Made by a program: the position numbers and the translations under genes. A stretch of DNA of 16,102 bases, taken from positions 1 to 16,102 of IMG/VR virus record IMGVR_UViG_2778261646_000017. One strand, given 5' to 3'. How positions within the stretch are numbered: position 1 is the stretch's first letter; every line of letters begins with the position of its first letter. Positions 1,584 to 16,102 of this stretch are shown here, in pieces. The stretch is from a virus (lineage: Duplodnaviria; Heunggongvirae; Uroviricota; Caudoviricetes). A model generated the notes under the pieces. The model saw only the letters and a program-made list of their open reading frames with translations, was not told the origin of the DNA and searched no databases.

Positions 1584-1610
1584 GAAACAACGTGGAACAA
1601 ATAGACACAA
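1584..1610. promoter_or_regulatory. Partial third copy of the phased GAACAA element (gaAACAAcgtgGAACAAatagacacaag)
   Basis: 17 nt (gaaacaacgtggaacaa) identical to the start of the reverse complement of 14781-14810; lies 123 bp after the phoQ stop. Confidence 0.4.
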
Positions 1611-2330: not shown

Positions 2331-2599
2331 CGCTCCGGCTTCTTCCAGTGGTACGTTATTTTTTCTTTCTCCCGATGCAGTTCAACGCGGCGATTGTAGG
2401 CCAGCATTTCAAGAACGCGGATCCGTATGTTGCGCATATCAACATCATTAAGCTGGATACCATCACGGCGCATCACCTCAGCAACAACACGCGCATAATT
2501 TTCGGCTGTCACGCTGTCCGGCTGCGTGGTCTGTTCGTCAGCCTGCTGGTTGATTCCAGAGACGCGGCGGATTAATCGCAGTATTTCGGCTTCTGTCAT
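2318..2599 (-). CDS. Hypothetical protein, 93 aa (orphan gene after TerL; candidate accessory gene)
   Basis: ORF MTEAEILRLIRRVSGINQQADEQ...; GAGG Shine-Dalgarno 9 nt upstream of ATG at 2599; enteric-like codon usage; starts 14 bp after the TerL stop. No family recognised. Confidence 0.55.
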   Translation of the reverse strand: MTEAEILRLIRRVSGINQQADEQTTQPDSVTAENYARVVAEVMRRDGIQLNDVDMRNIRIRVLEMLAYNRRVELHREKEKITYHWKKPERLRR

Positions 2600-2612
2600 G
2601 CTGCTGACCTCA

Positions 2613-4274
2613 TTACACCCCGCTAAATTCTTCCAGTTTCTGGCGGTGGCTGTCGCTTATATCAAAAGCAAAATCCTCATGCTCTGCCTGAAATGTACCA
2701 AACGCCATCAGTGCCGCTACGCTCGGGTCTATCTTGTTCGGTGATTTTTTCTTGTTCGGCTTGATATTGGCGTTCGCGTCACTCTGCATCACGACGTTAC
2801 TCATCGACCAGGACAACACCGGATCGCCACGATGCACAATCACCCTGCGGTTAACAAAAACTTCGAACGATTTCGCCGCCGGACTGAATCTGAGGTAGGT
2901 TTGCGGGAACGGCTCCACCTCAAAGCCTGCCCCCTGTAATTGCGTTCTCAGGTGCGTGGCGTTCCACGTATCGAAGCCCACCCGCCTGATATTAAATTTC
3001 TCGGCGTCCTGCATGATGTCATCTCTGATCCGGTCGTAATCAATGCAGTCGCCAGGCGTTGTGCGTATCCAGCCCGCTTTAGCCCACTGGCGATAGACAG
3101 CGCGATTTTTATTGGCTGGGTTCTGTAGCTGGAACTCCGGCAGATAATGACGGGAAACCAGCATGATATTTTTACCGACCGGAAAGGCATAGCATACGCT
3201 GGAAATATCGCTGGTTGATGATAAGTCCAGCCCCGCGTAACACTCCTGACCGTGTAAATCTTCCTCCGTGAACGTTCCGGTACACTCAGCCCATGCACCA
3301 TTACCCATCCACGGGGTAGTCCCCTGACACCAGATATTAAATCGCTTTGTCATCATCTCCACCCACTGCGACGGAATACCCCGCGCTTTCTGGATGGTTG
3401 AGGCCAGTTTTTCACGATCCACGGAAACATCGATGTTAGGGTTAGCCTTTATCCACATCGCCGGATCATCAACCTCGTTTTCGTCGTCCAGTTCGTAAAT
3501 CAGTACAAAAATTGAATCGTTGACCTCTTCGCCGTCCAGGATCTGGCAGCAATAATCATAGTGCTGCTTACAGGCTGAAACGACGTTACTGCCCGATGTG
3601 GTAATGGCAAATAACAGCCCTTCGGGACGTGCGCCCATCCCCATATCAAGTGCGGAATAAACCCCGTTGTCTGGGTGCAGGTGATATTCATCCACAATGG
3701 CAAGACTCGGGTTTGTCCCCTCAATGGTTGCCGCTTTTGCTGCCAGTGGCTTTAACAGGCTGTTGGTTTTCGGGTGTATCACCTTATGCGCCTGAATATT
3801 CACCCGCCTGCGTAACGGTCGGGATAAAAGGCACATCTGACGCGCATCATCAAAGACGATCCGCGCCTGGTCACGGCTCACCGCTGCGGTGTAGATATCC
3901 TGCTGACCGTTCTCCATAATCAGAAACCAGTTAGCCAGAATCGCGGCGGTCGTGGATTTCGCATTTTTGCGCGGCACTTCGATAAAGGCGCTCGTGTATT
4001 TGCGCCGTCCGGTGGCCTTAACCTTAAAGCCGAGGATGCACGCAAAGGCGAACTGCTGCCACGGCTCCAGCTCAATGGGTCTGCCACGCATCGGTCCTTT
4101 TACGTGCGGGCACACCCTGGAAAAGGCAATAAACCGCTCCACAACCTCACGATCGAACGTGTAAAGGGGGCTTTTAAGGTCCGAAAAGTACCGTTTAACA
4201 GCCTGTTTTAACCGTTTACAGGCCGGAATTTTGCCCGTTTTTACGTCTTCTGCGTACTTATTCCAGGCGGTCAA
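2613..4274 (-). CDS. terL: Terminase large subunit (Terminase_1-type ATPase/nuclease), 553 aa
   Basis: N-terminus YAEDVKTGKIPACKRLKQAVKRYFSDL typical of TerL; Walker A VPRKNAKST; Walker B-like LAIVDEYH; apparent TTG start inside the TerS 3' end with AGAGGA SD (17-nt overlap with TerS). Confidence 0.93.
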   Translation of the reverse strand: MTAWNKYAEDVKTGKIPACKRLKQAVKRYFSDLKSPLYTFDREVVERFIAFSRVCPHVKGPMRGRPIELEPWQQFAFACILGFKVKATGRRKYTSAFIEVPRKNAKSTTAAILANWFLIMENGQQDIYTAAVSRDQARIVFDDARQMCLLSRPLRRRVNIQAHKVIHPKTNSLLKPLAAKAATIEGTNPSLAIVDEYHLHPDNGVYSALDMGMGARPEGLLFAITTSGSNVVSACKQHYDYCCQILDGEEVNDSIFVLIYELDDENEVDDPAMWIKANPNIDVSVDREKLASTIQKARGIPSQWVEMMTKRFNIWCQGTTPWMGNGAWAECTGTFTEEDLHGQECYAGLDLSSTSDISSVCYAFPVGKNIMLVSRHYLPEFQLQNPANKNRAVYRQWAKAGWIRTTPGDCIDYDRIRDDIMQDAEKFNIRRVGFDTWNATHLRTQLQGAGFEVEPFPQTYLRFSPAAKSFEVFVNRRVIVHRGDPVLSWSMSNVVMQSDANANIKPNKKKSPNKIDPSVAALMAFGTFQAEHEDFAFDISDSHRQKLEEFSGV

Positions 4275-4614
4275 GCTCGTCCTCTTCTTCTGTTTCCGGT
4301 GGATTTTTACGGCGGCTTATCGGGTCAAAACCGAGCAAGGAGGCCATTTTTATCATCACTCTTTCAGCGTCGGATTTTGCGCTTAATGCGGGGTTTCTGC
4401 TCTCGCCGCCCTGACTGTTAACAATGCTGAACCCGCGCGCCGCAAGGTCTGCAACGGCTTTCCGGTAAATGGAGTAGTTGACGCAATACAGTTCCAGATT
4501 GCTCCAGTCGGCGGGGGTCAGGTCTCCCCGTTCCGCAAGCTGCCGCGATTTTTCCCGCCACTGCTTCACGGCGATATCATCCAGGTAGGCGGGGGCTTTC
4601 GGTGGTCTTGCCAT
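4258..4614 (-). CDS. terS: Terminase small subunit, P27-family-like, 118 aa
   Basis: MARPPKAPAYLDDIAVKQWREKSRQLAERGDLTPADWSNLELYCVNYSIY...NPALSAKSDAERVMIKMASLLGFDP with acidic C-terminus; directly upstream of and overlapping TerL. Confidence 0.8.
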   Translation of the reverse strand: MARPPKAPAYLDDIAVKQWREKSRQLAERGDLTPADWSNLELYCVNYSIYRKAVADLAARGFSIVNSQGGESRNPALSAKSDAERVMIKMASLLGFDPISRRKNPPETEEEDELDRLE

Positions 4615-4665
4615 GCTTATTTTTCGTCAGATTATTTTTCAAAAAATTCCCGTGCATAAAAATTT

Positions 4666-4724
4666 GGGGAGGCGTTCGGTGCCCGGCGGGGTCGGGTTTG
4701 TCCTGAAAACGCCCCCCACCCCGT
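4666..4724. other. Putative cos (cohesive-end) site: GC-rich segment with partial dyad symmetry in the 288-bp HNH-TerS intergenic gap
   Basis: ggggaggcgttcggtgcccggcggggtcgggtttgtcctgaaaacgccccccacccc; it is the only long non-coding gap in an otherwise overlap-coupled operon; HK97-like cos phages place cos between the HNH gene and terS. Confidence 0.4.
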
Positions 4725-4902
4725 CATACAGCCTCATCAGCGATTGCGGAAACATTCCATAACCTCGCGGTCACGGTCGGTTAATCGCTTCGCTGTGATG
4801 CGTTCTGCGCGTCCTGACGCTTTATCTTTATGCCCTGTTTCCTGTGTCTTCCATGCGTCACGCTGCCTTATAAGTCCACGGATAAGGCGGTTTTGTTCCC
4901 GC

Positions 4903-5343
4903 TCATTCATCAGCGTCATACATCCAGTTATTGCGGTTAGCGGCCCGTTCTTCCTCTTCATGAAATCCACCTGCGGCACGCTTGCTTTTTGTTGCCGGAT
5001 CAAGCCATTTCGTTTTCTGGTTATGACACGCCTGGCACAATGGTTGATGGTTCCATTCGGGCCAGAAGAGAACATCATCACCGCCATTAATCGGGATAAT
5101 GTGATCCACCACCACGGCGGGCGTATATATCCCCTTCTCAAGGCATCGCACGCATAACGGGTTTTTACTCAGATACATGGCGCGGTATTTGTCCCACTGT
5201 CTGGAGTACCCACGCGCGCGGCGGTGTCCTCGTCTGGCATCCTCTGCACGCCATGCCGCCCGCCTGTGCTCCTCACACTTGCCGGACTTCACGCGCCTGT
5301 TACAGCCTGGTTCTGTGCATCGTCTTAATGGTTGCCACGGCAT
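4903..5343 (-). CDS. HNH endonuclease (packaging-associated), 146 aa
   Basis: Cys pairs CTEPGC...C and CVRC...C, HNH core VVDHIIPINGGDD...NHQPLCQACHNQKT; GGGGGTG SD; sits immediately upstream of the cos-like gap and terS. Confidence 0.88.
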   Translation of the reverse strand: MPWQPLRRCTEPGCNRRVKSGKCEEHRRAAWRAEDARRGHRRARGYSRQWDKYRAMYLSKNPLCVRCLEKGIYTPAVVVDHIIPINGGDDVLFWPEWNHQPLCQACHNQKTKWLDPATKSKRAAGGFHEEEERAANRNNWMYDADE

Positions 5344-5639
5344 CAGTACACCCCCACATCACGGTAAGCCGTCCAGAGCGCGCCAATCGTCATGGGTACG
5401 CGCGTTTTTGCGTTATCCGCTACCAGCTGGCGATTCTCGTACAGGTGAGCGATAAACATCATGCAGCCAATCTTTATGGCTGGCGTGAACTCCAGCCCGT
5501 CATCAAAGCGCCTGCCTATATGTATCTGGCACGCCTCAAGCGATGCGGCAATGTATCCGCTGATTAACTGGTCTTCCTCGTCGCCATCGATGCGGCAATG
5601 GAGTTTCACTTCTTCCAGGGTGATAAGTTCTTCTGTCAT
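5343..5639 (-). CDS. gp6-like head-tail connector protein, 98 aa
   Basis: N-terminal LITLEEVKLHCRIDGDEEDQLISGYIAASLEACQ matches the gp6-like connector signature; GAGGG SD; ATGA start-stop overlap with the upstream adaptor gene. Confidence 0.75.
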   Translation of the reverse strand: MTEELITLEEVKLHCRIDGDEEDQLISGYIAASLEACQIHIGRRFDDGLEFTPAIKIGCMMFIAHLYENRQLVADNAKTRVPMTIGALWTAYRDVGVY

Positions 5640-5974
5640 TTTTCCGCGCCCTCACGACAAAGAATTTCAAGGCGTGTCCTGGCGGCATCCGGCAGCGGCT
5701 GCCCGATGATATTCAGTACACGCCCCGCCAGCGGCCCCGTATTGACCTTTATCCGGCTGGTGGCGTTGATGTCCTTCCTGTAGCGTATCCATATCCTTAC
5801 CGTTCCAGTCGCCAGTTCTGCACCCGATGAAATGGCCTCCTTGCTGCTGATCATGTTCACGCTTGCCCAGAGTGTGTGACCGTCCACCCACGTTTCGAGT
5901 ATTTCGCCGGTTATATCCCTGGTCTGTTTCAGGGTCTGAATCGTTACCCTGTCACGCAGTCGCCCTATGTTCAT
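5636..5974 (-). CDS. Head-tail adaptor / head-closure (joining) protein, about 112 aa
   Basis: GRLRDRVTIQ...TGEILETW...LWASV...RIWIRYR pattern of the phage head-tail joining family; start chosen at ATG 5974, which forms an ATGA overlap with the portal stop (the ORF track's longer start at 6016 has no SD). Confidence 0.75.
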   Translation of the reverse strand: MNIGRLRDRVTIQTLKQTRDITGEILETWVDGHTLWASVNMISSKEAISSGAELATGTVRIWIRYRKDINATSRIKVNTGPLAGRVLNIIGQPLPDAARTRLEILCREGAEK

Positions 5975-7182
5975 TCCGGTTTTTCTCCCTCGCTGATTTT
6001 TACTTCCTGTTTCCATGCCTGGCTGAACTCATCACCACCATCACGCGGGGACAGCCCTTCACGTTCGCGGGCTTCGTTCGGGCACATAACGCCGGATTTG
6101 ATGCCGCGTTCATAGGTGGCAAAGCGTTCGCCAGGTGTGGCCCGTAACAGGTCCGCGCTGTCAAACTCCACCTGATACCGGATACCAGGTACAGGTGAGG
6201 CCACCAGCAGGGCGTTTTTTATCTGCTGCTCAAAGTTCGCCAGCCACGGGCGCATCGTCATGGTGAGAAATGCGCGGCTTGCCTCGCTGAAATTGCTGTA
6301 GGTGCTGTTGCTGTATTCCTGCAAAAAAATCGGCGAGACGTTGAACATTCGGGCGATGTCTTCAATGGTGAAGCGACGGGAGGCCAGCCATTCAGCATCC
6401 TGATTACTCATGCCCAGCTGCTGATAGCTCATACCCCCTTCAAGGATGGGCGTTTTTCCGGCGTTTCTGGCCCCTTTGTAGCGTTCCAGTGCGGCTAATG
6501 CCTGTTTGCCCTTCACGCCGTCCAGCCATTCGCCTGACGTGATAACCCCTGCCGCCATCATGCCATCACGCATCACGCTCGCGCCGTGGCGTTGTTGGGC
6601 CAGCCCAAGCCCCAGCGATTCGCGGCAGATGGTTACAGGTGAGCGCCCCATAAAACCGTCATCCGTGGAGTAACGAAGGTGGAGAACCTCCCACGGTAAA
6701 TAGTTGCGGGTGTTTCCGGTGTAGGCGTCAGTGATGCAGTAGCGCCAGTTATGCTCACCTGTCTGCTCCACGTTCACCGACTGCGGCGGGTAAGGATGTA
6801 AAGCCACCGGAAAACCATCACGCCCCCACCGAATCACCGCATAAGCATTACCGTTTAACAGGCAGTGGCGGATCATCATTCGCTTAAACTGGTAGGGGGT
6901 TTGCCACGCGTTCGGGCGCTCGTTGAGGATGTGATCGACCGGATGAGAATCAAGCCACTCGCGGGCCTCCTTCCCCTTCTCATTGCGTACCAGGTACAGG
7001 TAACACGGCATGGTAGCCACCGCCTCAGAGATGACCGTCACGGCGTTCATGACGGCGGGCAGTGATTCCGCTGTCCCCGATGATACGTACTCACCCGCCC
7101 CCGTGTTCGATGTGCCGGCCAGCGCCATAAACTCATCAAGCGTCATGCTGCGCTGCTCTTTTTTTCTTCTGAAAGGCCACAT
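5971..7182 (-). CDS. Portal protein (HK97-family-like), 403 aa
   Basis: 403-aa ORF between protease and adaptor with portal-like features (…FNVSPIFLQEYSNSTYSNFSEASRAFLTMTMRPW…); GGGGGTG SD; start 1 nt after the protease stop. Confidence 0.9.
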   Translation of the reverse strand: MWPFRRKKEQRSMTLDEFMALAGTSNTGAGEYVSSGTAESLPAVMNAVTVISEAVATMPCYLYLVRNEKGKEAREWLDSHPVDHILNERPNAWQTPYQFKRMMIRHCLLNGNAYAVIRWGRDGFPVALHPYPPQSVNVEQTGEHNWRYCITDAYTGNTRNYLPWEVLHLRYSTDDGFMGRSPVTICRESLGLGLAQQRHGASVMRDGMMAAGVITSGEWLDGVKGKQALAALERYKGARNAGKTPILEGGMSYQQLGMSNQDAEWLASRRFTIEDIARMFNVSPIFLQEYSNSTYSNFSEASRAFLTMTMRPWLANFEQQIKNALLVASPVPGIRYQVEFDSADLLRATPGERFATYERGIKSGVMCPNEAREREGLSPRDGGDEFSQAWKQEVKISEGEKPE

Positions 7183-7183
7183 A

Positions 7184-7741
7184 TCACACCCCCGCTAAAT
7201 CCGCCCACCAGCGGCGATTATCCGCACGCGGCATTTTTTCGGGGTGCTGCTCGTACAGGGAGCGGCGGGCCAGCTCCACGCCAGAATCAGGGTAAGCCGG
7301 TACGGATGTAACGGTAATTTCGTACAGTTCCGCCACCAGCACGGTGCGCACGCATGGATCTGTTGTGGTATCCCATACATCCTTACGGGAGCGAAAGCCA
7401 AAGCTCATGCCGGATATATCACCTCGTTTAACCAGTTCGATAACGTCCCGCCCTGTACTGGTATCCGGTGGGGTCAGTTCAAAGCGTAACCCTGTGTCGT
7501 CCTCTTCCAGTTTCAGCGTGCCGGAACGGGTGCGCCCCAGTAACATGCTGTGGTCATGCTCATACAGGCCGCGAACGTCATTACCCGCTGCAAGCCATTC
7601 AGTAAACGCTCCCCGCTGGAATTTTTCGTAAAACTCCCCCCATAGCAGCTCTGAAAGGTTATCCCAGCGAACAACGTAGCCTGTAAGCGTGTTGCTGGCG
7701 CTGGTGGTGATTTCCGATGACCGGATTTCCATACTCTTCAT
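7184..7741 (-). CDS. Prohead maturation protease (HK97-family-like), about 185 aa
   Basis: MKSMEIRSSEITT...GYVVRWDNLSE...DHS..LLGRTRSGTL...GDISGMSFGF motifs; start placed at ATG 7741 (GGTGA SD) because the longer start at 7756 lies directly on the tail of the upstream terminator. Confidence 0.85.
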   Translation of the reverse strand: MKSMEIRSSEITTSASNTLTGYVVRWDNLSELLWGEFYEKFQRGAFTEWLAAGNDVRGLYEHDHSMLLGRTRSGTLKLEEDDTGLRFELTPPDTSTGRDVIELVKRGDISGMSFGFRSRKDVWDTTTDPCVRTVLVAELYEITVTSVPAYPDSGVELARRSLYEQHPEKMPRADNRRWWADLAGV

Positions 7742-7756
7742 AATTTTTTCACCCAT

Positions 7757-7786
7757 AAAACACTAAAGGGGCTTTTAAGCCCCTTC
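7757..7786 (-). terminator. Rho-independent terminator between the capsid and protease genes
   Basis: On the - strand: AAGGGGCT-TAAA-AGCCCCTT stem-loop followed by TTAGTGTTTT, 10 nt after the capsid stop. Confidence 0.6.
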
Positions 7787-7795
7787 TGTATGCTG

Positions 7796-8953
7796 TTAAT
7801 CGTCGTCCTGTGGCAGTTCCAGAATCTTGATCGCGTTCGAATCCACCACGCCACCGCCTAAATATTTCTGCGTGAAAATTTTGATGAAGCCCGGCTCTGT
7901 GAGGTTGTCCGGTCTGGTGCGAACACCTGTTTCGTGATCAACAATGTAGTAACCGCGTTTGAAGTCACCCAGGGCAATAACGTTATCAGGCATAAACTCC
8001 AGATATTCGACCGGAAGGCCCAGCAACGTATCAGGATCACCCGCCTGTAAACGGTCGCGCCAGATGTAATCACCGTTCGCGTTCTTCACCTTCTGAAGTT
8101 TTGCGGCCGTCGTGGAGTTAACCACCCAGACCGCGTTTTTGCGATATTTTTTATGTAATGCAAATTTCAGGTCGATCAGCGGGTCCGCAGATGTCCACGC
8201 CAGAGATTCGGAAGGTTTAATTACCTGTAACGTACCAAAATCACGCTCTTTGTCGTTCTTCTCTGCACGGGGTACGGATAAAAAGCCTTTTGCTTTTTTG
8301 TCACCGTCGCCCACAACCAGATCGCTTTCTTCGGTTTCCGTGAAGGTGTCGCCAATCTCACCCGTCAGCCATGAAAGGATGTCCACATCGGAAAAATCCA
8401 CGATTTCCTGTGTGGTGCGCGGGTACGCATAGACCGGATACAGCTTAATGCTCACCTCGTTAATCTGCGGGGTGCTGGTCTGTTCGCGTGCCTTACCCTC
8501 TTCACCGTGGTTAACGGTCGCACCGCCAGCGGAAACAAGCTGCTTAAACTCGTTGCTGCTGATTTTCTTCACGGTACAGATGCGGCGCATGGTGGATTCA
8601 TCCGCCAGCATTCGCATGATTTCGGTGTTCAGCTCGGGGATAACGGTATAACCACCATCAGCGGGAACGCCTGTACTTAATGCGCGGGTTTCACCTGTCA
8701 GGATGTAGTTTCGTAGTTCTGCGGGGTCAGTGGTCTGACTGCTTTTACCTGGCTTGCTGCGCTCTTCGTCTGCAATGGCTTCAAGGCGGGAAATGTCTTT
8801 ATCGAGGGATTCAGCTTTAGCGCGTAATTCGTCAAATTTTGCGCCCTCAGCATCGTTAAGACTGCGGTTTTCTTTTTCCGCGTTCTCCAGCATGTCGCGC
8901 ATCTGATTTTTAATGGCGGTTTTCTGCTGGCGTAATTCGATTATTCTCGGCAT
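7796..8953 (-). CDS. Major capsid protein, HK97-fold with N-terminal coiled-coil scaffold (delta) domain, 385 aa
   Basis: N-terminal 60 aa heptad-rich (LRQQKTAIKNQMRDMLENAEKENRSLNDAEGAKFDELRAKAESLDKDISRLEA); C-terminal body with capsid-like features (…GYYIVDHETGV…); followed by a terminator. Confidence 0.93.
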   Translation of the reverse strand: MPRIIELRQQKTAIKNQMRDMLENAEKENRSLNDAEGAKFDELRAKAESLDKDISRLEAIADEERSKPGKSSQTTDPAELRNYILTGETRALSTGVPADGGYTVIPELNTEIMRMLADESTMRRICTVKKISSNEFKQLVSAGGATVNHGEEGKAREQTSTPQINEVSIKLYPVYAYPRTTQEIVDFSDVDILSWLTGEIGDTFTETEESDLVVGDGDKKAKGFLSVPRAEKNDKERDFGTLQVIKPSESLAWTSADPLIDLKFALHKKYRKNAVWVVNSTTAAKLQKVKNANGDYIWRDRLQAGDPDTLLGLPVEYLEFMPDNVIALGDFKRGYYIVDHETGVRTRPDNLTEPGFIKIFTQKYLGGGVVDSNAIKILELPQDDD

Positions 8954-8960
8954 AAAAAAA

Positions 8961-8990
8961 GTCCTGGGGTTAAGTAAGGAACTCCAGGAC
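8961..8990 (-). promoter_or_regulatory. Stem-loop plus U7 tract immediately 5' of the capsid ATG; the stem contains the AGGA Shine-Dalgarno
   Basis: - strand reads GTCCTGG-(16-nt loop)-CCAGGAC-TTTTTTT-ATG; the only SD-like sequence (AGGA, 8 nt before ATG) is in the 3' arm of the 7-bp stem. Confidence 0.5.
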
Positions 8991-9167
8991 GCGGCAAAAA
9001 CTCAACCGTTTTTCATAAGGAAATCAGCAATCGCACCGATCGTTTTCCCGCCTGGTAATGAATATTGGCGAGAACATTAACAGGCGGAAAAGTGGCCCCA
9101 GCGTCCTGGCACCACGGGCGAGAATAATCATGATTCAGTTCGGGTAAAATATGCCGATCCGGTCAGC

Positions 9168-9193
9168 GAACAACGTGGAACAACCACGAACAA
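9168..9193. promoter_or_regulatory. Phased hexamer element GAACAA-cgtg-GAACAA-ccac-GAACAA, about 215 bp upstream of the capsid gene
   Basis: Three perfect GAACAA hexamers at 10-bp spacing; 9169-9193 is identical to the reverse complement of 14781-14805. Confidence 0.5.
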
Positions 9194-9210
9194 ATAATTT
9201 ACAAAACATG

Positions 9211-9235
9211 ACAAAAAGCCGGATTGCTCCGGCTG
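9211..9235 (-). terminator. Rho-independent terminator after the PerC-like gene (end of the early operon)
   Basis: - strand: AGCCGGA-GCAA-TCCGGCT followed by TTTTTGT, 6 nt after the stop. Confidence 0.6.
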
Positions 9236-9240
9236 TGTGA

Positions 9241-9513
9241 TTATCTGTCCTGGTAATTTCGCCATATTTCATCACCAGCACCATCCATACCCATTTCGGC
9301 ATAAGTGCGATCGACCGCCTTTTTCAGGTCTCCGTAATTATCCGGCGGCTCCGGTGGCCTCTGTGCCTTCCTGGAACATTCCAGCCGTCGCATCGTGATG
9401 TGATGCCGTTCCTTGTCTGTCTCCACCAGTTGCATGACTTCACCCCATCGCGCCGACGCTCTCCGGTAAAAGCCTTTCGCCTCCAGTTCTTCCGCTATGC
9501 GGTCATGTACCAT
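9241..9513 (-). CDS. PerC-like small transcriptional activator (putative), 90 aa
   Basis: MVHDRIAEELEAKGFYRRASARWGEVM... resembles my recollection of the PerC-family N-terminal signature (LE..G.WRRAA.RW); strong GAGGGGGG SD; family assignment not verified. Confidence 0.55.
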   Translation of the reverse strand: MVHDRIAEELEAKGFYRRASARWGEVMQLVETDKERHHITMRRLECSRKAQRPPEPPDNYGDLKKAVDRTYAEMGMDGAGDEIWRNYQDR

Positions 9514-9522
9514 CGCCCCCCC

Positions 9523-9933
9523 TCAGAACGGAATATCATCACCGTAAGGGTCATCGCCTCCCGCTGGTGGCTGATTACCCTGTGTGCCTGTGGTCTTGCG
9601 CCGGCTCCCACCAGGTCGCGCCGTTCTGGCACTGATTACGCTGTCTGCAATAACCTGCCAGCCCTGCCGCGTTTCGCCGTTCTGGCCTGTCCACTGGCTT
9701 ACCTGCATGTTACCCGCCACGCTCACCAGCTCGCCTTTGTGGTGTTTTGCCAGTGCGTCGGCCTGTCTGCCAAACGCCAGGACGGATAACCACATCGTCG
9801 CCTGTCCGTCATCTGCCTGATTGCACGGCAGGGGGACCGCCATGCTTGCCATAGCCATTTGTGTGCCCTTGCTGGTGGTCTTTAACTGCGGGTCAGCCAC
9901 CAGCCGCCCGTAAGCGGCTATCTGTGCTGTCAT
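9523..9933 (-). CDS. ssb: Single-stranded DNA-binding protein, divergent, with canonical acidic DDIPF C-terminal tail, 136 aa
   Basis: OB-fold-like core (YGRLVADPQLK...WLSVLAFGRQAD...KGELVSVAGNMQVSQW), Gly/Pro-rich linker and C-terminal DDPYGDDIPF; ATGA overlap with the upstream gene. Confidence 0.8.
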   Translation of the reverse strand: MTAQIAAYGRLVADPQLKTTSKGTQMAMASMAVPLPCNQADDGQATMWLSVLAFGRQADALAKHHKGELVSVAGNMQVSQWTGQNGETRQGWQVIADSVISARTARPGGSRRKTTGTQGNQPPAGGDDPYGDDIPF

Positions 9934-10187
9934 GATTCCACCTCTCCGGTTTTAACGTTGATGGTTGTTACCTGTTCCGCTTCGGCAATCTCCCGTTCCG
10001 TCAGCGTGGCAAAGTTTGCCGCCGCCGTGGTCATGAATGCGCTTATCAGGTCGGGATGTGCTTTCGCGTATCCTTCCCCCGTGTTGCGGTCGATGATTTT
10101 TATCGCCACTCTCAGCCAGTGCTCTGTAAGGTCAATGGCGCGGTTATGCTGCTTCTTCTGATTATTAAGTTTTCCTGATGTGCGCAT
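9930..10187 (-). CDS. Hypothetical protein, 85 aa
   Basis: ORF MRTSGKLNNQKKQHNRAIDLTEHW...; GAGGGGG SD; translationally coupled to ssb. No family recognised. Confidence 0.55.
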   Translation of the reverse strand: MRTSGKLNNQKKQHNRAIDLTEHWLRVAIKIIDRNTGEGYAKAHPDLISAFMTTAAANFATLTEREIAEAEQVTTINVKTGEVES

Positions 10188-10229
10188 TTTTATTTTTACC
10201 CCCTCGTTTAAAAAGTTTTGAGTTGTGCC

Positions 10230-10465
10230 TCCCCTTGTCTACCTTATCTACCTTACTGGCTCTCATGCCAGTAATGGCGCGGCTTTCAGCGGGGTAGAGT
10301 GCTTTTATCCACTATCTACCCCGTATCTACCTCCCTGTCTGATTCAGGTAAAATCAGGTAGAGAGGGTAGATAGTAGGTAGACAGTGAAAAAAGGCTGTC
10401 TACCTAAGTTAATATACTGAATTAAATGTATTTTTCTTTACTCAGGTAGACAGGGTAGACAGCCA
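10230..10465. repeat. Iteron-type replication origin: at least 11 copies of GGTAGA / TCTACC in both orientations flanking an AT-rich core
   Basis: tgtctacc, tatctacc (x3), ggtagag, aggtagagagggtagatagtaggtagacag, gtctacct, then AT-rich taagttaatatactgaattaaatgtatttttctttac, then aggtagacagggtagacag; immediately 3' of the primase gene. Confidence 0.7.
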
Positions 10466-10475
10466 TTGCAAAAAA

Positions 10476-12224
10476 TTATAAAAACGCGTCGCAATCGTCT
10501 GTTGTTATTGCGTTAGTCTGCGTTACTCCCTTAACTTTCCGCGTAATATATTCATGTCCGTAAACTTTCGCGGCTGGCTTCATAGCCTTGCCAAAGTCAT
10601 TTACGTTTAGCGGTTTGCTCCTGCCTGCGTATGCCATAAACGCCAGATAGACGCGGTAAAGGCTGTTTCTGGTCGTGTACTTCACTGAATCGCCACCGCC
10701 ACCCATCATCAGGCCGCGCGCTTCCTCCAGAAAATTCAGGAACTGGCAAAACTCAATAACCGGATCCGTCTGTTGCTTTATTGCCAGTGCTTCATCACCG
10801 TCACGCTGTTCCAGTAGTAAAGCCCGTGCCTTCTCAGGGTCGGTAAAGTTCGCCAGCAAGCGGCGGATAATGACAGGGATTTCAGCCGCGATCTTTTCCG
10901 GTAGCTCCCTGTCTTTTTCTGCCTCGCTTACGATATTGTCGAAGCGGAAAATAACCCGACGACGTGACACGCCTCCGGCCCGTTCGGTGAATATCATCGG
11001 GTTGTTATTGGTCGCCAGCACCACCGCCCTGATTACCGTAGTGAAACGCTTTTCATATTTCGGGTTGATTTCCACGGGGTCGCCGCCCGTGATTTTCTTG
11101 ATGCCCGTGCCTTCGCCTGTATATTTCGGCTGGTCTGCCAGGACGATAAGACGACTCCCGACAACCTGCGCACGCCCACCAGCATCATCAAGCGATGTCA
11201 TTTCCGCGCTTACCGTGTTTTGTTTCCCCGCTAAAAGGCTGGCGATGTGGGTGAATGTACTTTTGCCGCTCCCGCCGTCTCCGGTGGCCTCAATAAACAT
11301 CTGCCAGTCGTACCGGTTCGCCATAATCATGTACAGCGCGGCACATATACGCATCATCTTGCGCTGGTCTTTTCCGGCTGCGTGATCAAGCCATTTATGA
11401 AAGTTTGGCGCGTTATCGCGGATGTTCTCCCCAGGTGCTGGTGGCGTGTACTCAATGCCGTTGTGCGTGGTGATCCAGTTCTCCGGCGTGTGCGGGGAAA
11501 ATTCCCCCGTTTTCAGGTCAAGCGCACCATTGGCGAACGGCAACAAATCGCCGGACGGCTCGCCCATTGGTTCGGCAATAACTTTTAACGCTTCCACGGC
11601 GTTATTGATTACGCGCTTGCTGAAAGTGGCCCTGTGCTCTGAATAGATCGCCACCATTTCGCGGCTAAGTTCCATTGTGCTGACCGGACACCATACCCCG
11701 CCGCGCCATACGTGAACGATTTCACTTTCCGGATGCACACAAACGCCATCAAATCGACCAGCAAGCATCTGTGCGCGCTCACTGTCTGCCATTTGTGCCA
11801 GTTGCGTATTTTTCTGCTCCGGCATGGTAAGCCCTGCGGCAATATTTTCACGCTCAGCATTCAGATAGCGCCGCCAGTTTTCACACTTCTGGACGTGCAT
11901 TCCTTCGGGGTAAAAATTTGCGTCCTGAATATCTGCCGCCGCCAGCTTCTGACCAATCTTTTTGGTCTCCACCAAATCCAGTTCTCCGGCCTGGTACAGC
12001 CTTACGCGCTTTTTCCCATCCGGAACAATTTTCAGCGCATCAAGTTCGGCAAGCTGATTTGGCCCAAGCCACACAGGCGGCACATTATCGCCGGATGCGG
12101 GGCCGTCCTGCTCCTGCCACTGTTTTGCATGTGACCACGCATCACTACCCGCGAAAATAATTACCTCTGTGTCTTTGTGTTTTATTCCGCGTGGCTGTTT
12201 TTTTACGTTCGGTGCCAGTTTCAT
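10476..12224 (-). CDS. Replication protein: primase / SF3-type helicase (P4 alpha-like, PICI Pri-Rep-like), 582 aa
   Basis: Walker A GDGGSGKST, Walker B-like RLIVLAD, N-terminal primase-like region; ATGA-coupled to the upstream small gene; iterons directly downstream. Confidence 0.88.
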   Translation of the reverse strand: MKLAPNVKKQPRGIKHKDTEVIIFAGSDAWSHAKQWQEQDGPASGDNVPPVWLGPNQLAELDALKIVPDGKKRVRLYQAGELDLVETKKIGQKLAAADIQDANFYPEGMHVQKCENWRRYLNAERENIAAGLTMPEQKNTQLAQMADSERAQMLAGRFDGVCVHPESEIVHVWRGGVWCPVSTMELSREMVAIYSEHRATFSKRVINNAVEALKVIAEPMGEPSGDLLPFANGALDLKTGEFSPHTPENWITTHNGIEYTPPAPGENIRDNAPNFHKWLDHAAGKDQRKMMRICAALYMIMANRYDWQMFIEATGDGGSGKSTFTHIASLLAGKQNTVSAEMTSLDDAGGRAQVVGSRLIVLADQPKYTGEGTGIKKITGGDPVEINPKYEKRFTTVIRAVVLATNNNPMIFTERAGGVSRRRVIFRFDNIVSEAEKDRELPEKIAAEIPVIIRRLLANFTDPEKARALLLEQRDGDEALAIKQQTDPVIEFCQFLNFLEEARGLMMGGGGDSVKYTTRNSLYRVYLAFMAYAGRSKPLNVNDFGKAMKPAAKVYGHEYITRKVKGVTQTNAITTDDCDAFL

Positions 12225-12520
12225 TTTTTACCCCTGAATACGTTAAGCATCTTTTTTATTTCCTGAATATTGGCGCGTGCTTTCTCCCTGCTGGTTGGTT
12301 TACTGCGGGGCGCTGCCTGTACCAGAGAAAAATCACGCCGAAACTGATAAACAGGCATCACGCAATCATATTCGTAGCCTTCACGACGGTAGGTGATGCG
12401 CCGTTCTGCCACGCCTTTAATCGTTACCATGCCGCCATATTTATCGCGGTAAATATCGCCGTTCATAAATTCAGGACGAGCGGGGCCGCTGGCAGTAACG
12501 CCAGAATTTTTATTTTTCAT
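12221..12520 (-). CDS. Hypothetical protein, 99 aa
   Basis: ORF MKNKNSGVTASGPARPEFMNGDIYRDKYGGMVTIKGVAERRITYRREGYEYDCVMPVYQF...; basic C-terminus; no family assigned with confidence. Confidence 0.55.
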   Translation of the reverse strand: MKNKNSGVTASGPARPEFMNGDIYRDKYGGMVTIKGVAERRITYRREGYEYDCVMPVYQFRRDFSLVQAAPRSKPTSREKARANIQEIKKMLNVFRGKK

Positions 12521-12525
12521 GTTTT

Positions 12526-12753
12526 TTATTCTCCGGTGTGCTGCGCTTTATTATTCTCGTGAATTGCCATCACTGTATTTAATTCATTAATAACAGGCGT
12601 TAATAGCGTACGCACGGCAGAAAACATCATTGAATCAGATTCATCGCCACTTTCCGGCACATCAATTAACTTAAGTAGTAATGCGTCCATTTCCTTTGCG
12701 CGGATTAATGCGTTTTCAGAATGAACAAGAACATCAAAGGGTATTTTATGCAT
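12526..12753 (-). CDS. Hypothetical protein, 75 aa (start at the internal ATG with AGGGGGGAG SD)
   Basis: MHKIPFDVLVHSENALIRAKEMDALLLKLIDVPESGDESD...; the longer start offered by the ORF track (12855) has no SD and overlaps the upstream gene. Confidence 0.5.
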   Translation of the reverse strand: MHKIPFDVLVHSENALIRAKEMDALLLKLIDVPESGDESDSMMFSAVRTLLTPVINELNTVMAIHENNKAQHTGE

Positions 12754-12916
12754 GACTCCCCCCCTGGCGAATACGGGCGACAAAAATAAGATGTGCGTGC
12801 GGCAGCTGTGCACGTGCTTCGCGCTCAGTGGCAGCGGTAACGGTGAATATTGCAATACTGTCTGTCAGGCACTGCATAAAGCGCCAGACAAAATAAGGGC
12901 GTGCGAATACAGCCAT
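12746..12916 (-). CDS. Small protein, 56 aa, paralog of the gene at 13203-13406 (possibly the Icd-like cell-division-inhibitor family; unverified)
   Basis: MAVFARPYFVWRFMQCLTDSIAIFTVTAATEREARAQLPHAHLIFVARIRQGGSHA aligns with the C-terminal 50 aa of the upstream paralog (WRF...EARxQ.P......F.ARIRQG.SHA). The reading frame stays open upstream to 13210, so the N-terminus is uncertain. Confidence 0.5.
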   Translation of the reverse strand: MAVFARPYFVWRFMQCLTDSIAIFTVTAATEREARAQLPHAHLIFVARIRQGGSHA

Positions 12917-13202
12917 GTGAAAGGCTCCCAGATGAATTTTAAGGAGTCTCGCTACTACGCTGCTAAACATGGTGGCGAGACGTAACAGGGTTAGCAGACT
13001 GGTCATCTGGAAACCAGCGAGCACAAAGGCTCCCCCGTTACGCCCCGCCATAATGCGGGTATGGGTAGGTTTACGGACACAAAAAAACCGCTTATCGGAT
13101 GTGGGCGGCTGTCCGCCAGATGTATTCAGGCTGCTAAACCCGGTCGCCATGTGGGCGACGGGGGAAGCATACAGCCCCGTGATAATTTTTTGCAAGCGGT
13201 TT

Positions 13203-13406
13203 TTACGCATGATGTGACCCCTGACGAATACGGGCGGCGAATACCATCACGCAGCCAGCCGGGGATTGCTGGCGTGCCTCCTGTTCGCTGGTGGCCTCAA
13301 TGGTAATCACGCGCGGTTGTGCCGTGCTCAGGGCGATAAAACGCCAGATGTATTTATTCAGGTTGTGCGAGTCCCGCCCTTGCGGGTGTGTGGTATGATT
13401 TCTCAT
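13203..13406 (-). CDS. Small protein, 67 aa, paralog of the gene at 12746-12916 (possibly Icd-like; unverified)
   Basis: MRNHTTHPQGRDSHNLNKYIWRFIALSTAQPRVITIEATSEQEARQQSPAGCVMVFAARIRQGSHHA; GAGG SD 6 nt upstream of ATG at 13406; it is the C-terminal part of a 352-aa track ORF whose remainder I reject. Confidence 0.55.
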   Translation of the reverse strand: MRNHTTHPQGRDSHNLNKYIWRFIALSTAQPRVITIEATSEQEARQQSPAGCVMVFAARIRQGSHHA

Positions 13407-13501
13407 AGCTACCTCGATACTTTCGCTATCGTTGGTGGTTAGAGGCTGCGAAAGGACGGCAATCCTTTTCAGCCTCGTTTGCATTGAGTGATAGTTACTC
13501 A

Positions 13502-13582
13502 ACTGGATTCCAGTATAATCATCAAGTGGAATCCACTTCAAGCATTTTGTTTTGGTCTTTTTCGTGTATACTGGATTCCAGT
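13502..13582. promoter_or_regulatory. Three palindromic operators with core TGGAWTCCA, plus -10-like hexamers, in the divergent control region
   Basis: ACTGGA-T-TCCAGT at 13502-13514, AAGTGGA-A-TCCACTT at 13524-13538, ACTGGA-T-TCCAGT at 13570-13582; TATAAT at 13514-13519. Confidence 0.6.
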
Positions 13583-13602
13583 AATCACAAAGGAAACCGG
13601 AA

Positions 13603-13782
13603 ATGGAAAGAGACCATATCAATAACAAATCACAAAAATTACAGGCTCGCGCCCCGCATGAAGTTGTTGAGGCAATGGAGCAAGTCAAAGAAACAGGCGA
13701 GAGCACTGCGCAATTTATCGTTACAGCCATGCGCGGCGAGATCAAACGCCGCCAGCGTCGCAAAGCCAAAGAATCAGAATAA
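13603..13782 (+). CDS. Small ribbon-helix-helix-like DNA-binding protein (putative regulator), 59 aa; not in the ORF track because it is under 60 aa
   Basis: MERDHINNKSQKLQARAPHEVVEAMEQVKETGESTAQFIVTAMRGEIKRRQRRKAKESE; AGGAAA SD 8 nt upstream; predicted strand-helix-helix pattern; operators directly upstream. Confidence 0.5.
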   Translation: MERDHINNKSQKLQARAPHEVVEAMEQVKETGESTAQFIVTAMRGEIKRRQRRKAKESE

Positions 13783-13839
13783 TCACTATCAGCGCCGTGG
13801 CGTGAGGTACTCCGGCGCATTGCTTTACAGGTCAGTACT

Positions 13840-14049
13840 ATGAGCAAAAAACACCGATCAGCAGATGAGATTTTTGCAGAACAACGAAGATTGCTTTTGC
13901 AAAGTATCATTTCACGCCAGCAAGAGAAGGCGCGAGCTAAACAAATGCCACCAAATACAGAACCAGCGCCTACAAGATTTGCGCTTGATGACTTTCTCGA
14001 TAAACACCCCAGGGTAATGAAAGCAAACAAAAACCGCCCACCAGGCTGA
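13840..14049 (+). CDS. Hypothetical protein, 69 aa
   Basis: MSKKHRSADEIFAEQRRLLLQSIISRQQEKARAKQ...; weak AGGT SD; followed by a + strand terminator. No family recognised. Confidence 0.4.
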   Translation: MSKKHRSADEIFAEQRRLLLQSIISRQQEKARAKQMPPNTEPAPTRFALDDFLDKHPRVMKANKNRPPG

Positions 14050-14140
14050 TCACATTGCCCACCAGCCTGATAGCGGCTATCATCCCCGTGCTTATGTTTG
14101 AGATCACACACACAAACGGCGCAGCGGGTTATCTGTTCAG

Positions 14141-14173
14141 AAAGGCGGCTCCATTTCAGGGCCGCTTTTTTTA
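14141..14173 (+). terminator. Rho-independent terminator for the two small + strand genes
   Basis: AAAGGCGGC-(11-nt loop)-GCCGC followed by TTTTTTT on the + strand. Confidence 0.55.
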
Positions 14174-14318
14174 TTCCTGAAAAACCCCAATTTTGTTGTT
14201 TTTCAGTTTCACCAGGGCGAACGAATCCCCGCCCACGTTCTGGCGTATATTCAATCTTCATGGTTATAGCTCTGTGTTCAGATGATTGATGTGTGGCGGC
14301 TGCGTGCCGCCAGCGTGA

Positions 14319-14507
14319 TTAATGAACTGCCTTGCAGCTATCCTTCCAGGCCAGAACCTCGGATAAAGACCAGCCAACGGAACGACCGCCAAGTTTACGA
14401 CGTGATGGGAATTGTCCGGCCTTTTCCAGGCGGTAGCGACACGTACGGCTAAGGCCGGTTAGTTTTTCGCATTCTTTTTCACGTATAAACCGATCAGTGC
14501 TTAACAC
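14319..14507 (-). CDS. alpA: AlpA-family transcriptional regulator / excisionase-like HTH protein (62 aa from GTG; track ORF extends to a TTG at 14588)
   Basis: DRFIREKECEKLTGLSRTCRYRLEKAGQFPSRRKLGGRSVGWSLSEVLAWK matches the AlpA HTH signature (TGLSRST.YR....G.FP...KLG.R.V.W); GTG at 14507 has a strong AAAGGGGGG SD 5 nt upstream. Confidence 0.8.
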   Translation of the reverse strand: MLSTDRFIREKECEKLTGLSRTCRYRLEKAGQFPSRRKLGGRSVGWSLSEVLAWKDSCKAVH

Positions 14508-14780
14508 TATTGCCCCCCTTTCGTTTCTTAAAGAGTCATCAGGTGTCTTATTGTGTCGTATTGTTCCCGCTAGAGTGATGAATGGCAAATATTGAGGATG
14601 TATGATTTACAGAAAATGAAACAGTAAGAATAAAATCTTTTAAATTCATGTTAATACAAAGGCATAAAATATTGTTTCATGCCTTTTTTCTCACGCGTTA
14701 AAGCGTTATTCGCTAATGTATAAAAAAACAGTCACACAAATAAAATCAGTCACTTATAAACCTGTGTGCTTTTTCGCCTC

Positions 14781-14826
14781 TTGTTCGTGGTTGTTCCACG
14801 TTGTTTCACATTGTTCTCCGTTGTAT
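14781..14826. promoter_or_regulatory. Phased hexamer element: five TTGTTY hexamers at exact 10-bp spacing, between int and alpA
   Basis: + strand TTGTTC-gtgg-TTGTTC-cacg-TTGTTT-caca-TTGTTC-tccg-TTGTAT; the first 25 nt are the exact reverse complement of 9169-9193. Confidence 0.55.
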
Positions 14827-14872
14827 CTGTGTGCTTATCCAGTATGCGCATACTGAAAAAACACGAAAAAAA

Positions 14873-16102
14873 TTATTTTCTTCTGGCTGCTGGTAGTGCG
14901 GTTACGTTTTCATGTGTTCCCGCCAGTATCCCTAACCGCTCCATCCACATATCCAGCGCATTGCGTTTAGCATCCAGATAACGGGAATGATTATAAACTC
15001 GCTGCATTCCTGGCATCTGGTGGCCTGTAAGCTGCTCCACGACGTGAGGATCCACGCCTAAATCGCTCAGCATCGTTGTAAAGGTGCGCCGGATGTCATG
15101 TAGTGACCAGTGAGGGTGATTTAGCCTCCTGTGCGCTAATCTGCCGTACTGCGACACGCTTGTTTCCTGTTTCACTTCCCCCAGCAATAAGCCCGTGTGC
15201 CTGTTCTGCTCCACCAGCTGCGTGACGAACGGCAGTATTGCTTCCGGTATGGGCCGGAATATTGCCACCTTCGTTTTGCTGTGTTCTTTCGGCACGGTCC
15301 AGAGCATTTCGGTAAAATCCCACTCGCTGATCTCCGATAACCTCAGTTCTACCGTCCGGCATCCGAACACAATCAGGAGGCGGATTAACGCGATGTAGTA
15401 GGGGGAGAATATTTTTTTGTCCAGTGCCTGCAATAATTCGCCCAGTTCTTTGGTGCTTAAGACACGCTCGCTTATATCCAGTTTTTTCCCAACGTCCGCC
15501 ACACTCATATCATCAAGAACGTTGCTGATTGCATAGCGCCGCCTCCGGCAGAACTTAAGCGCCTGTTTGCACGTCTGTAGCAAGAATCCGGCAGTAACAG
15601 GCGTTCGCTTTGCCACCTGGTCAAAACAGGCCAGCCAGTGCCGTAGCTCGCATTTATCCAGCGGCATAGCACCAATGTGCTGTATTACGTGATTATTAAG
15701 GCGCTTTTTCAGGGCGGCATAATCCACGCGGTTTTCCTTTGCGTACGACTCAAGCCAGTAGGTGAGCGCATCGCCAACCGTTACCGGCTTTAACGCTTCC
15801 TGTACGGTGTAATTAAGCTCATGACGTGGATTTTTCCCCTCTGCCAGCCATGCGCGACACTGGGCGGCTTTTTCCCTGGCTGATTTCAGGCTCAGATCAG
15901 GATAATTTCCCAGCTTAATGCGTTCCGGTGGTGCCCCCCTTCCCGTTCCGGCCCTGTAAGTGAAATACCAGGTTAAAAGGCCACTGGTTGAATGCCTGAC
16001 GCTCAGGTTTCCACCGTCATTAAGAAAGGCTGTTTTTTGGGCGGGTGTGCCGTTGATTTTCCTCAGCTGTGTATCGCTCAGTTTGTTAAGTGCTCTGCTC
16101 AT
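14873..16102 (-). CDS. int: Tyrosine recombinase / integrase, P4-type (409 aa; start codon at the window edge, could extend further)
   Basis: N-terminal arm-binding-like domain (LSDTQLRKI...GLLTWYFTYRAG), catalytic region with HDIRRTF...LGHQ-like...RVYNHSRY (R-H-R-Y residues). Confidence 0.92.
   Translation of the reverse strand: MSRALNKLSDTQLRKINGTPAQKTAFLNDGGNLSVRHSTSGLLTWYFTYRAGTGRGAPPERIKLGNYPDLSLKSAREKAAQCRAWLAEGKNPRHELNYTVQEALKPVTVGDALTYWLESYAKENRVDYAALKKRLNNHVIQHIGAMPLDKCELRHWLACFDQVAKRTPVTAGFLLQTCKQALKFCRRRRYAISNVLDDMSVADVGKKLDISERVLSTKELGELLQALDKKIFSPYYIALIRLLIVFGCRTVELRLSEISEWDFTEMLWTVPKEHSKTKVAIFRPIPEAILPFVTQLVEQNRHTGLLLGEVKQETSVSQYGRLAHRRLNHPHWSLHDIRRTFTTMLSDLGVDPHVVEQLTGHQMPGMQRVYNHSRYLDAKRNALDMWMERLGILAGTHENVTALPAARRK

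Follow-up and report, generated by a model that had tools for sequence, protein, structure and literature searches.

The recombination directionality factors (RDFs) Apl, Cox, Xis and Vis recognise direct repeats spaced by one helical turn, require some three sites side by side and act both at attachment (att) sites and at promoters; such RDFs bind head-to-tail and bend DNA, and several of them use the same sites at att and at promoters (PMC7498355). For Apl of phage 186 and Cox of P2, binding is cooperative and head-to-tail on about three one-turn direct repeats, with the same sequence at attP and at a promoter (PMC7498355). RdfS of ICEMlSymR7A, a winged helix-turn-helix (wHTH) RDF, binds attP upstream of intS and its own promoter, forms head-to-tail filaments and coordinates excision with expression (PMC11963761). 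TorI of KplE1/CPS-53 in E. coli K-12, a small winged-helix RDF, uses short units with GTTCG/GATCG/GTCCG as the core, of which three, at 10-bp phase, border on the -35 element of int; beside them, directly upstream of this P4-family int, IntS has arm-type sites of its own (PMC2951348). Vis of satellite P4 is an AlpA-family protein annotated as 'excisionase and transcriptional regulator'; it is reported to be needed for excision and to regulate late promoters. It is only remotely related to the AlpA of phage-inducible chromosomal islands (PICIs) (PMC6092414). The latter is the master switch of Gram-negative PICIs and of capsid-forming PICIs (cf-PICIs), whose published prototype is EcCIEDL933. 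AlpA of EcCICFT073 activates PalpA (positive autoregulation) and, when over-expressed without a helper, brings about int-dependent excision and replication (PMC6092414), and alpA is required for the induction of EcCIEDL933. No DNA-binding sites of AlpA were found in the searchable literature, including the papers on EcCIMP1, CP4So, cf-PICIs, GIsul2 and the PICMIs, which are minimalist chromosomal islands inducible by phages. Here I describe phased hexamer arrays in a stretch of 16,102 nt (positions 1 to 16,102 of the IMG/VR record IMGVR_UViG_2778261646_000017), the whole of which is called the window below. The window carries a cf-PICI of the EcCIEDL933 type integrated at the phoQ stop codon. 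I consider it probable, at roughly 0.7, that the arrays are AlpA operators serving excision, autoregulation and activation of the late operon.

It was found that the motif TTGTTY occurs in phased runs at five places of the element: in the two att arms, at a distal and a proximal site upstream of alpA, and before the capsid operon. Four of these places are inside the window, while the fifth, the P-arm copy upstream of int, lies just past the window end and was read in L001, an almost identical element with both flanks. The arrays, and the genes and repeats needed to follow them, are listed below.

1460-1469, host/element junction with the crossover core AAATATGTCC, at the phoQ stop codon, from comparison with the empty K-12 site (L002) and both junctions in L001
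1544-1567, minus strand, tandem 12-mers GGTGTAGTTAAT / GGTGTAGTCAAT, proposed integrase arm-type sites of the P′ arm
1585-1610, minus strand, P′ arm array TTGTGT ctat TTGTTC cacg TTGTTT, from repeat and pattern searches
9168-9214, minus strand, capsid-operon array, in which two weaker units, TTGTCA and TTGTAA, come before three perfect TTGTTC units (9193-9168)
14319-14507, minus strand, alpA, encoding a 62-aa winged-helix protein (PF05930), from Pfam, PHROG, an AlphaFold2 model and a PDB structure match
14551-14566, plus strand, proximal hexamer pair TTGTGT cgta TTGTTC, overlapping the putative -10 element of alpA, in the orientation of the distal array
14781-14826, plus strand, distal int-alpA array of five units, TTGTTC gtgg TTGTTC cacg TTGTTT caca TTGTTC tccg TTGTAT
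16102-14873, minus strand, int, encoding a P4-family tyrosine integrase (Arm-DNA-bind_3 and Phage_integrase domains)

A repeat search of the window revealed that 14781-14805 on the plus strand is the perfect reverse complement of 9169-9193 (25/25), whereas about 2e-7 such 25-bp matches are expected by chance in 16 kb. The same search also matched the int-alpA array with 1571-1612. A first-pass annotation, made from the letters alone, had picked out this inverted match as no accident, which the expectation bears out. It had also placed the capsid-side copy correctly; this copy is 26 nt long (9168-9193, three GAACAA), is extended to 9214 by the two weaker units, and lies 215 bp upstream of the capsid ATG (8953). 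On the alpA side, the annotation had counted five TTGTTY hexamers one turn apart. The steps are exactly 10 bp (unit starts at 14781, 14791, 14801, 14811 and 14821) and four units fit the motif, but the fifth reads TTGTAT. Both of its distances to alpA exist but had been exchanged: the array is 274 bp upstream of alpA with the most likely start of the gene, the GTG at 14507 (the PGAP call in L001), which follows a GGGGGG Shine-Dalgarno sequence, and the distance would be 193 bp if the TTG at 14588 were used. The int stop codon is only 47 bp before the array, whose units read GAACAA in the direction of alpA. The motif is not limited to these two control regions; it is present also at 1585-1610, at 14551-14566 and upstream of int beyond the window, places that the annotation had missed.

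The gapped pattern TTGTTCN4TTGTTCN4TTGTT gave 6 matches with up to three mismatches, against 0.07 expected, and runs of at least three phased units were found three times in the window and never in 300 dinucleotide shuffles. Lone hexamers are not enriched (30 found against 24 expected), so that it is the phasing that carries the signal. The units are head-to-tail direct repeats spaced by exactly 10 bp in all the arrays, except that the weaker stretch of the capsid array includes a single step of 11 bp. Each att arm has three to four units, the int-alpA region five to six, the capsid leader three to five and the proximal alpA site two to three.

Are these arrays kept in other elements? Among 5,426 complete E. 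coli genomes, the int-alpA region was found in 838, at 70-100% identity, and the capsid leader in 443; among the matches listed, those of the int-alpA region abut an integrase gene. A general host repeat, which the first-pass annotation had named as one outcome that would undo its proposal, is rejected by this distribution, every inspected matching locus being inside a satellite. The search of satellites and phages that it had advised found the array in satellites and nothing like it in 50,697 phage records. In EcCICFT073, L008 (proX/ygaZ) and L009 (smrA/abgR), the int-alpA array consists of five to six hexamers at 10-bp phase with quite different spacers. The att-arm modules are conserved at three different integration sites, though the crossover cores differ. 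In the leader of the capsid operon, the block TTTTGTAAATTATTTGTTCGTGGTTGTTCCA(C/G)GTTGTTC is identical across diverged cf-PICIs whose flanks differ, and TTTTGTAAATTAT together with three hexamers is identical between two leader classes that have diverged on both sides and have different upstream terminator hairpins. In summary, spacers, att cores, replication proteins and their iterons, the presence of PerC and even the integrase vary among relatives, but the hexamers are kept, and in phase; selection acts on the unit and the phase rather than on the overall sequence. A degenerate-pattern scan of IMG/VR gave at least 80 loci. Ten of the 80 are satellites; in the 70 others listed no homologue of AlpA, Int or the capsid was found, and these matches are probably due to chance. 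Where a satellite locus includes a capsid gene, the array precedes that gene by about 220 bp, even if the capsid is only 63-75% identical. In L082, arrays follow alpA, precede the capsid gene and stand at the other end of the element. These are conserved arrays of a protein-binding type, and the two control regions are very probably served by one factor, as had been proposed at the outset.

A host DNA-binding protein, for instance a response regulator of the OmpR/PhoB family or a nucleoid protein, might be this factor. The element adjoins phoPQ, and TGTTTC/TGTTCC resembles half-sites such as the PhoP box TGTTTA. Response-regulator boxes are pairs of direct hexamer repeats bound by a dimer, and the PhoP box has a period of 11 bp. 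The exact 10-bp period and the three to six units found here are unlike either of these. It is reported in the literature that H-NS binds an alpA promoter in Shewanella CP4So; however, the arrays accompany the element into unrelated hosts and different sites of integration, and their position beside the integrase arm sites points to a role in recombination. A host protein is thus very unlikely. The first-pass annotation had read the phasing as typical of a winged-helix activator or a response regulator on one face of the DNA; a winged-helix protein does fit, but the architecture is one expected of an RDF that is also a regulator rather than of a response regulator.

The att arms are informative about the binder. 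When the arms are joined as attP on the coding strand, one composite recurs in both, in direct orientation and some 80-150 bp away from the core. It consists of three to four hexamers in phase, followed after about 16 bp by a tandem 12-mer, GGTGTAGTTAAT GGTGTAGT(T/C)AAT. The P arm (read in L001 17505-17690) has the hexamers TTGTTC cagc TTGTTT cacg TTGTAG ccct TTGTGC, and its 12-mers end 22 nt (TGTGATGACCGGAATCAAAATT) before the int ATG. GenBank annotates the attP arm repeats of P4 as tandem 12-mers to either side of the core, and the pair next to int ends 15 nt before its ATG. Because the Int arm repeats of P4 share the layout of two GGTGTAGTTAAT words, the role of integrase arm-type sites is proposed for the tandem 12-mers of this element, and some other protein must bind the hexamers. 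The first-pass annotation had argued that the hexamers are not att cores. This is right, but the same hexamers lie in both att arms, beside the 12-mers. A 21-bp direct repeat, ACTACACCATTAACTACACCG, was also considered as the att core and was rejected; the empty K-12 site shows that it is an arm module inside the element, flanking the true core on both sides, and that the real junction is at the phoQ stop codon.

The hexamers could themselves be the arm-type sites of the Arm-DNA-bind_3 domain of the integrase, with the alpA and capsid copies as extra Int sites. Int does carry an arm-binding domain, hexamer triplets are found in both att arms in direct orientation, and the arrays co-vary with Int in close relatives. 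However, it is the separate tandem 12-mer of each arm that has the position and layout of the annotated Int arm repeats of P4. The GGTGTAGT 12-mers are confined to the att arms, and the 12-mer sequence changes with the integrase lineage (TGGTCCAAA in L014, GTGTATTGCA in L035 and AGGCCCA in CP4-57), as expected of Int arm sites. The hexamers, in contrast, are found at att arms and promoters alike and are kept alongside an Int of only 24% identity. To my knowledge, Int arm-type sites outside att are not known. I therefore regard Int as a highly improbable binder of the hexamers.

The locus with the 24%-identical Int is L014, whose AlpA is 66% identical to that of the window and has a near-identical recognition helix. 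Upstream of its int are cTGTTTCagacTGTTTC, then a different tandem repeat, TGGTCCAAAC t TGGTCCAAAG, and then 16 nt to the ATG; cTGTTTCagacTGTTTC is the sole such phased pair in 20 kb of 68%-GC DNA. A scan of genome contigs with AlpA gave three loci, among them the distant L004, which was set aside for want of a nearby integrase, and the distant L005 of Geobacter. In L005 (AlpA 52% identical), the sole phased pair, TTGTTTCatagTGTTTT, is directly upstream of int. In L035 (Int 42% identical), GTGTATTGCACT GTGTATTGCAAA precede int, yet the capsid array is identical. This locus, a diverged cf-PICI on an IMG/VR contig, has genes for two AlpA-like proteins in tandem after int, and upstream of int its DNA resembles coding sequence, a feature also of PICIs embedded in a helper; EcCIMP1 has been reported to have two AlpA paralogues of different roles. 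CP4-57, which has an AlpA with a different helix, has the same layout in other words: (G/A)TCCGAA units and the tandem TTAGGCCCATTG/ATAGGCCCAACG before int (L137, K-12, 480-660). In P4 (L016, 3940-4180), a T-rich TTGTTG.. stretch adjoins the arm repeats. Phased short units, a tandem 12-mer pair and 15-40 nt to the int ATG thus appear to be a general layout of elements with P4-family integrases.

Of the proteins named by the first-pass annotation as possible binders (AlpA, the PerC-like protein and a helper-phage activator), AlpA is the best supported. Among Int, Rep, PerC and AlpA, it is the sole candidate present in every locus that covers the region. Its PHROG annotation is 'excisionase and transcriptional regulator'. 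The AlphaFold2 model (pLDDT, the predicted local distance difference test, 86) has a helix-helix-wing-helix fold, and its best PDB match is the GIsul2 excisionase 8c3t, with template modelling (TM) scores of 0.79/0.85 and 39% identity; RdfS and Pukovnik Xis are also among the structure matches. The published AlpA proteins are close to that of the window, the CFT073 protein being 94% and the O157 element protein 100% identical. The arrays have what is expected of RDF sites, namely direct repeats one turn apart, at least three adjacent units, a position beside Int arm-type sites and a wHTH RDF encoded by the element itself. As with dual-purpose RDFs, the same unit is found at att and at promoters, with an identical 25-mer at int-alpA and in the capsid leader.

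Each of the described RDFs differs from AlpA in some respect. BLASTP aligns TorI with this AlpA over 42 aa at 29% identity (E = 6e-5) and the TTGTTC unit contains the GTTC of its core, but TorI is below the PF05930 threshold. Its sites have been described only in att, where they repress int, whereas the units here are also upstream of alpA and of the capsid operon and AlpA is an activator. Apl and Cox differ from AlpA in protein subfamily and motif, and they repress early promoters of a complete phage; the targets proposed here are an autoactivated regulator and the late morphogenesis operon of a satellite. The RdfS structure 8dgl matches the AlpA model with a TM score of 0.68, but RdfS has an extra N-terminal helix and no recognisable consensus, in contrast to the sharp hexamer at strict 10-bp phase found here. 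P4 shares the tandem 12-mer Int arm repeats just upstream of int; no clear TTGTTY array was seen in P4, which, unlike the present element, has no capsid operon of its own.

The PerC-like protein would be a binder at hand, since perC adjoins the capsid array in the window and the family is annotated as transcriptional activators. Its homologues are, however, absent from L009, L012, L014, L005, L035, L055, L056 and L090, all of which keep arrays, and L035 and L056 keep an identical capsid array without it. PerC is thus excluded as the common binder, and I give it hardly any credence.

The arrays might instead be replication iterons, like ori/crr of P4, bound by a C-terminal winged helix of the primase/helicase like that of P4 alpha. 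The C-terminus of the window primase matches the P4 alpha origin-binding domain 1KA8 (E = 1e-6, residues 486-574), and the type I iterons of P4 (cTGTTCACC, 10-11 bp spacing) resemble TTGTTCCACG and are near vis and attP. Against this, each element has a separate dense iteron cluster directly 3′ of its rep gene that tracks the rep type. The iteron words are TGTCTACC in the window and in CFT073 (11 copies) and in L012 (4 copies), CTGTTCACC in L082 (9 copies), TGCGGGTTA in the DUF927 types and AAAGTGAGG in the RepA type. The TTGTTY arrays are unchanged across all rep types, L082 has both CTGTTCACC iterons and separate TTGTTC arrays, and the arrays have the features of neither response-regulator boxes nor P4-type iterons. 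This explanation is extremely improbable. As for the iterons themselves, about eleven TGTCTACC/GGTAGAC copies directly 3′ of the primase gene, at 10190-10475 of the window, are probably the origin of the satellite, and the L082 iteron CTGTTCACC is the P4 type I iteron. The N-terminal part (about 160 aa) of the primase (10476-12224, minus strand) is shared, at 37-68% identity, with replication proteins of the DUF927 and RepA/AAA_25 types that otherwise differ from it. No Pfam family matches this part, which seems to be a portable module.

A helper-phage protein, for example a PICI inducer or an Xis/Cox-type RDF of the helper, might bind the arrays in the way P2 Cox acts on satellite P4. P2 Cox binds three tandem 10-bp Cox boxes and activates a late promoter of P4. 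P4 also has three tandem TTAAAG.. 10-bp repeats just upstream of vis (TTAAAGtcat / TTAAAGccac / TTAAAGcaat, L016 9176-9205, annotated as 'ori type 2 repeats'), which I take to match the P2 Cox-box consensus rather than to have an origin function. Transcription of alpA is induced by helper phages through a helper factor (PMC6092414), excisionase cross-talk between mobile elements has been reported in the literature, and RDFs have relaxed specificity (PMC7498355). On the other hand, the phage records searched contain nothing resembling the array, and the arrays are kept across elements with different helpers and very different hosts (the 68%-GC contig L014, L005 of Geobacter). In EcCICFT073, AlpA alone, without a helper, drives excision and PalpA activation. 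Since AlpA alone suffices and no other conserved repeat is present in these regions, AlpA must have sites of its own there. A helper protein as the binder is therefore unlikely.

With AlpA as the preferred binder, the control regions of alpA and of the capsid operon can be described as follows.

9146-9151, minus strand, putative -10 element TATTTT, 16 nt downstream of the last hexamer of the capsid array, read from the sequence
9217-9234, minus strand, intrinsic terminator closing perC, directly upstream of the capsid array
14560-14588, minus strand, putative alpA promoter (TTGCCA, 17 nt, AACAAT), from a consensus scan and alignment
14659-14690, conserved stem-loop between the distal array and the alpA promoter, with the T-run on the plus strand

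The -35 element of the putative alpA promoter is invariant in an alignment of six diverged elements. CFT073-type elements have three phased AC(A/C)CAA units at the place of the proximal pair and keep the stem at 14659-14690 despite base changes. Two plus-strand open reading frames (ORFs), at 13603-13782 and 13840-14049, one of them YlcI/YnfO-like, converge on alpA, and a plus-strand transcript ending at the hairpin would be antisense to alpA. A plus-strand promoter leading from the int-alpA array into int antisense was considered and dropped, the geometry not being kept in CFT073-type elements. On the capsid side, type-B elements have a different hairpin at the place of the perC terminator. 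The last hexamer of the capsid array might, as a weak inference, serve as a -35-like element paired with TATTTT. Q-type antitermination was considered for this array, which lies just after a terminator, and was rejected. The Pseudomonas 'AlpA', whose N-terminal ring enters the RNA exit channel, is an unrelated 21Q-like protein of more than 140 aa and is not among the PDB sequence matches to the present AlpA.

A course of events may be proposed from the site architecture and the behaviour of the family. A helper phage would switch on alpA, as published for EcCICFT073 and EcCIEDL933, and AlpA monomers may then bind head-to-tail, one per turn, on the TTGTTY runs. In the att arms, the AlpA filament would bend the arm and help Int on the adjacent 12-mers to assemble the excisive complex. 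The distal array of five to six units and the proximal site of two to three units over the -10 element would give the autoregulation of alpA. In cf-PICIs, the array after the perC terminator would make the capsid-protease-portal-terminase operon AlpA-dependent by recruiting RNA polymerase to a weak promoter, with the last hexamer as the -35-like element and TATTTT 16 nt downstream. A single small protein would then tie excision to its own amplification and to the expression of late genes.

Several observations weigh against assigning the arrays to AlpA in this way. The case for AlpA consists of site architecture and covariation, and a Pint-lacZ fusion of EcCICFT073 was unresponsive to AlpA despite the array upstream of int (PMC6092414). 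The arrays on the alpA side are inverted relative to their downstream gene, as compared with the capsid and int arrays, and a stretch of more than 190 bp, which includes the conserved stem-loop, separates the distal array from the putative alpA promoter; simple class I/II activation therefore fails to explain the autoactivation of alpA. The consensus promoter scan called no canonical sigma-70 promoter downstream of the capsid array (nor did the promoter scans call one for int), and the putative -10 element of the capsid leader is not conserved in sequence in type-B leaders. Classical PICIs (CFT073, L009) have no array before capsid-related genes. Because Int and AlpA co-vary in the closest relatives, the uncoupling of the hexamers from Int is seen in only a few distant loci, and in the two most distant of these, L014 and L005, the site has no more than two units. 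L012, with a 68%-identical AlpA, has a phased unit shifted towards ..TTCG, and its other arm showed no clear array.

The distal array may have a role of its own as the entry point of the helper signal, although I consider this quite unlikely. A helper RDF of the Xis/Cox type, or another helper protein of relaxed specificity for TGT-rich repeats one turn apart, would nucleate on the AlpA operators and fire the first round of alpA transcription, and AlpA would then take over at these sites. If this is true, PICI induction would be a form of 'excisionase cross-talk', parallel to the activation of P4 P_LL by P2 Cox through the Cox boxes, and excision, like the capsid operon of the satellite itself, would be licensed from these same operators.

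A dual-purpose RDF (Apl/Cox/Vis/TorI/RdfS) with one-turn operators at att and promoters is an already known pattern, and no new principle is involved. What would be new with respect to the searchable literature is a concrete candidate operator of the PICI master regulator, located in both att arms and apparently captured before the capsid operon of a satellite. Published papers disagree on AlpA, which is an activator in EcCICFT073 and an excisionase without transcriptional effect in the Vibrio PICMIs. A TTGTTY operator at 10-bp phase would reconcile both roles in principle, as one RDF-type protein acting on one kind of site. The arrays give precise mutations for studying the coupling of excision, autoactivation and late expression, and the capsid leader is a candidate for an AlpA-dependent late promoter that could be of use when PICI-based delivery vehicles are engineered. 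A hexamer run followed by a tandem 12-mer before int may also be used as a signature for delimiting the att arms of elements with P4-type integrases.

The element lies between phoQ and roxA and shares its type with the O157:H7 element (L006) and its integration site with EcCICFT073 (L007). All of its genes are on the minus strand. Besides int and alpA, the following genes define its layout.

1-1461, plus strand, host phoQ
4274-2613, minus strand, terL
8953-7796, minus strand, capsid gene, with its ATG at 8953
9513-9241, minus strand, perC
12224-10476, minus strand, primase-helicase gene (D5_N/DUF5906/Pox_D5)

After alpA come several genes of unknown function, among them Icd-like fragments and a DUF4222 protein, and then the primase-helicase gene. 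An 85-aa ORF, SSB and PerC are encoded between the primase-helicase and the capsid, and the genes 3′ of the capsid gene encode an S78 protease, the portal, two connector proteins, HNH, TerS and TerL in this order. Within the Icd-like region, an Rfam C4 antisense RNA (RF01695, the immunity-type RNA of P1/P7) was found at 12968-13055 on the minus strand, with 72.7 bits against a gathering score of 45. On either side of it is one copy of a 48-nt direct repeat (12737-12784 / 13194-13241, 75% identical), in which its target boxes could be located; this suggests a module like c4-icd of P1 in a PICI. Finally, four to five copies of a unit of about 48 nt with a hairpin (GCCCCGACCTCCTCAAATTGAGGAGGTCGAAAGTATCAACCAGTTACC) are present at 1896-2334, between a small ORF after terL and the att arm. 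These copies are candidates for packaging/terminase-recognition repeats or for a terminator cluster.

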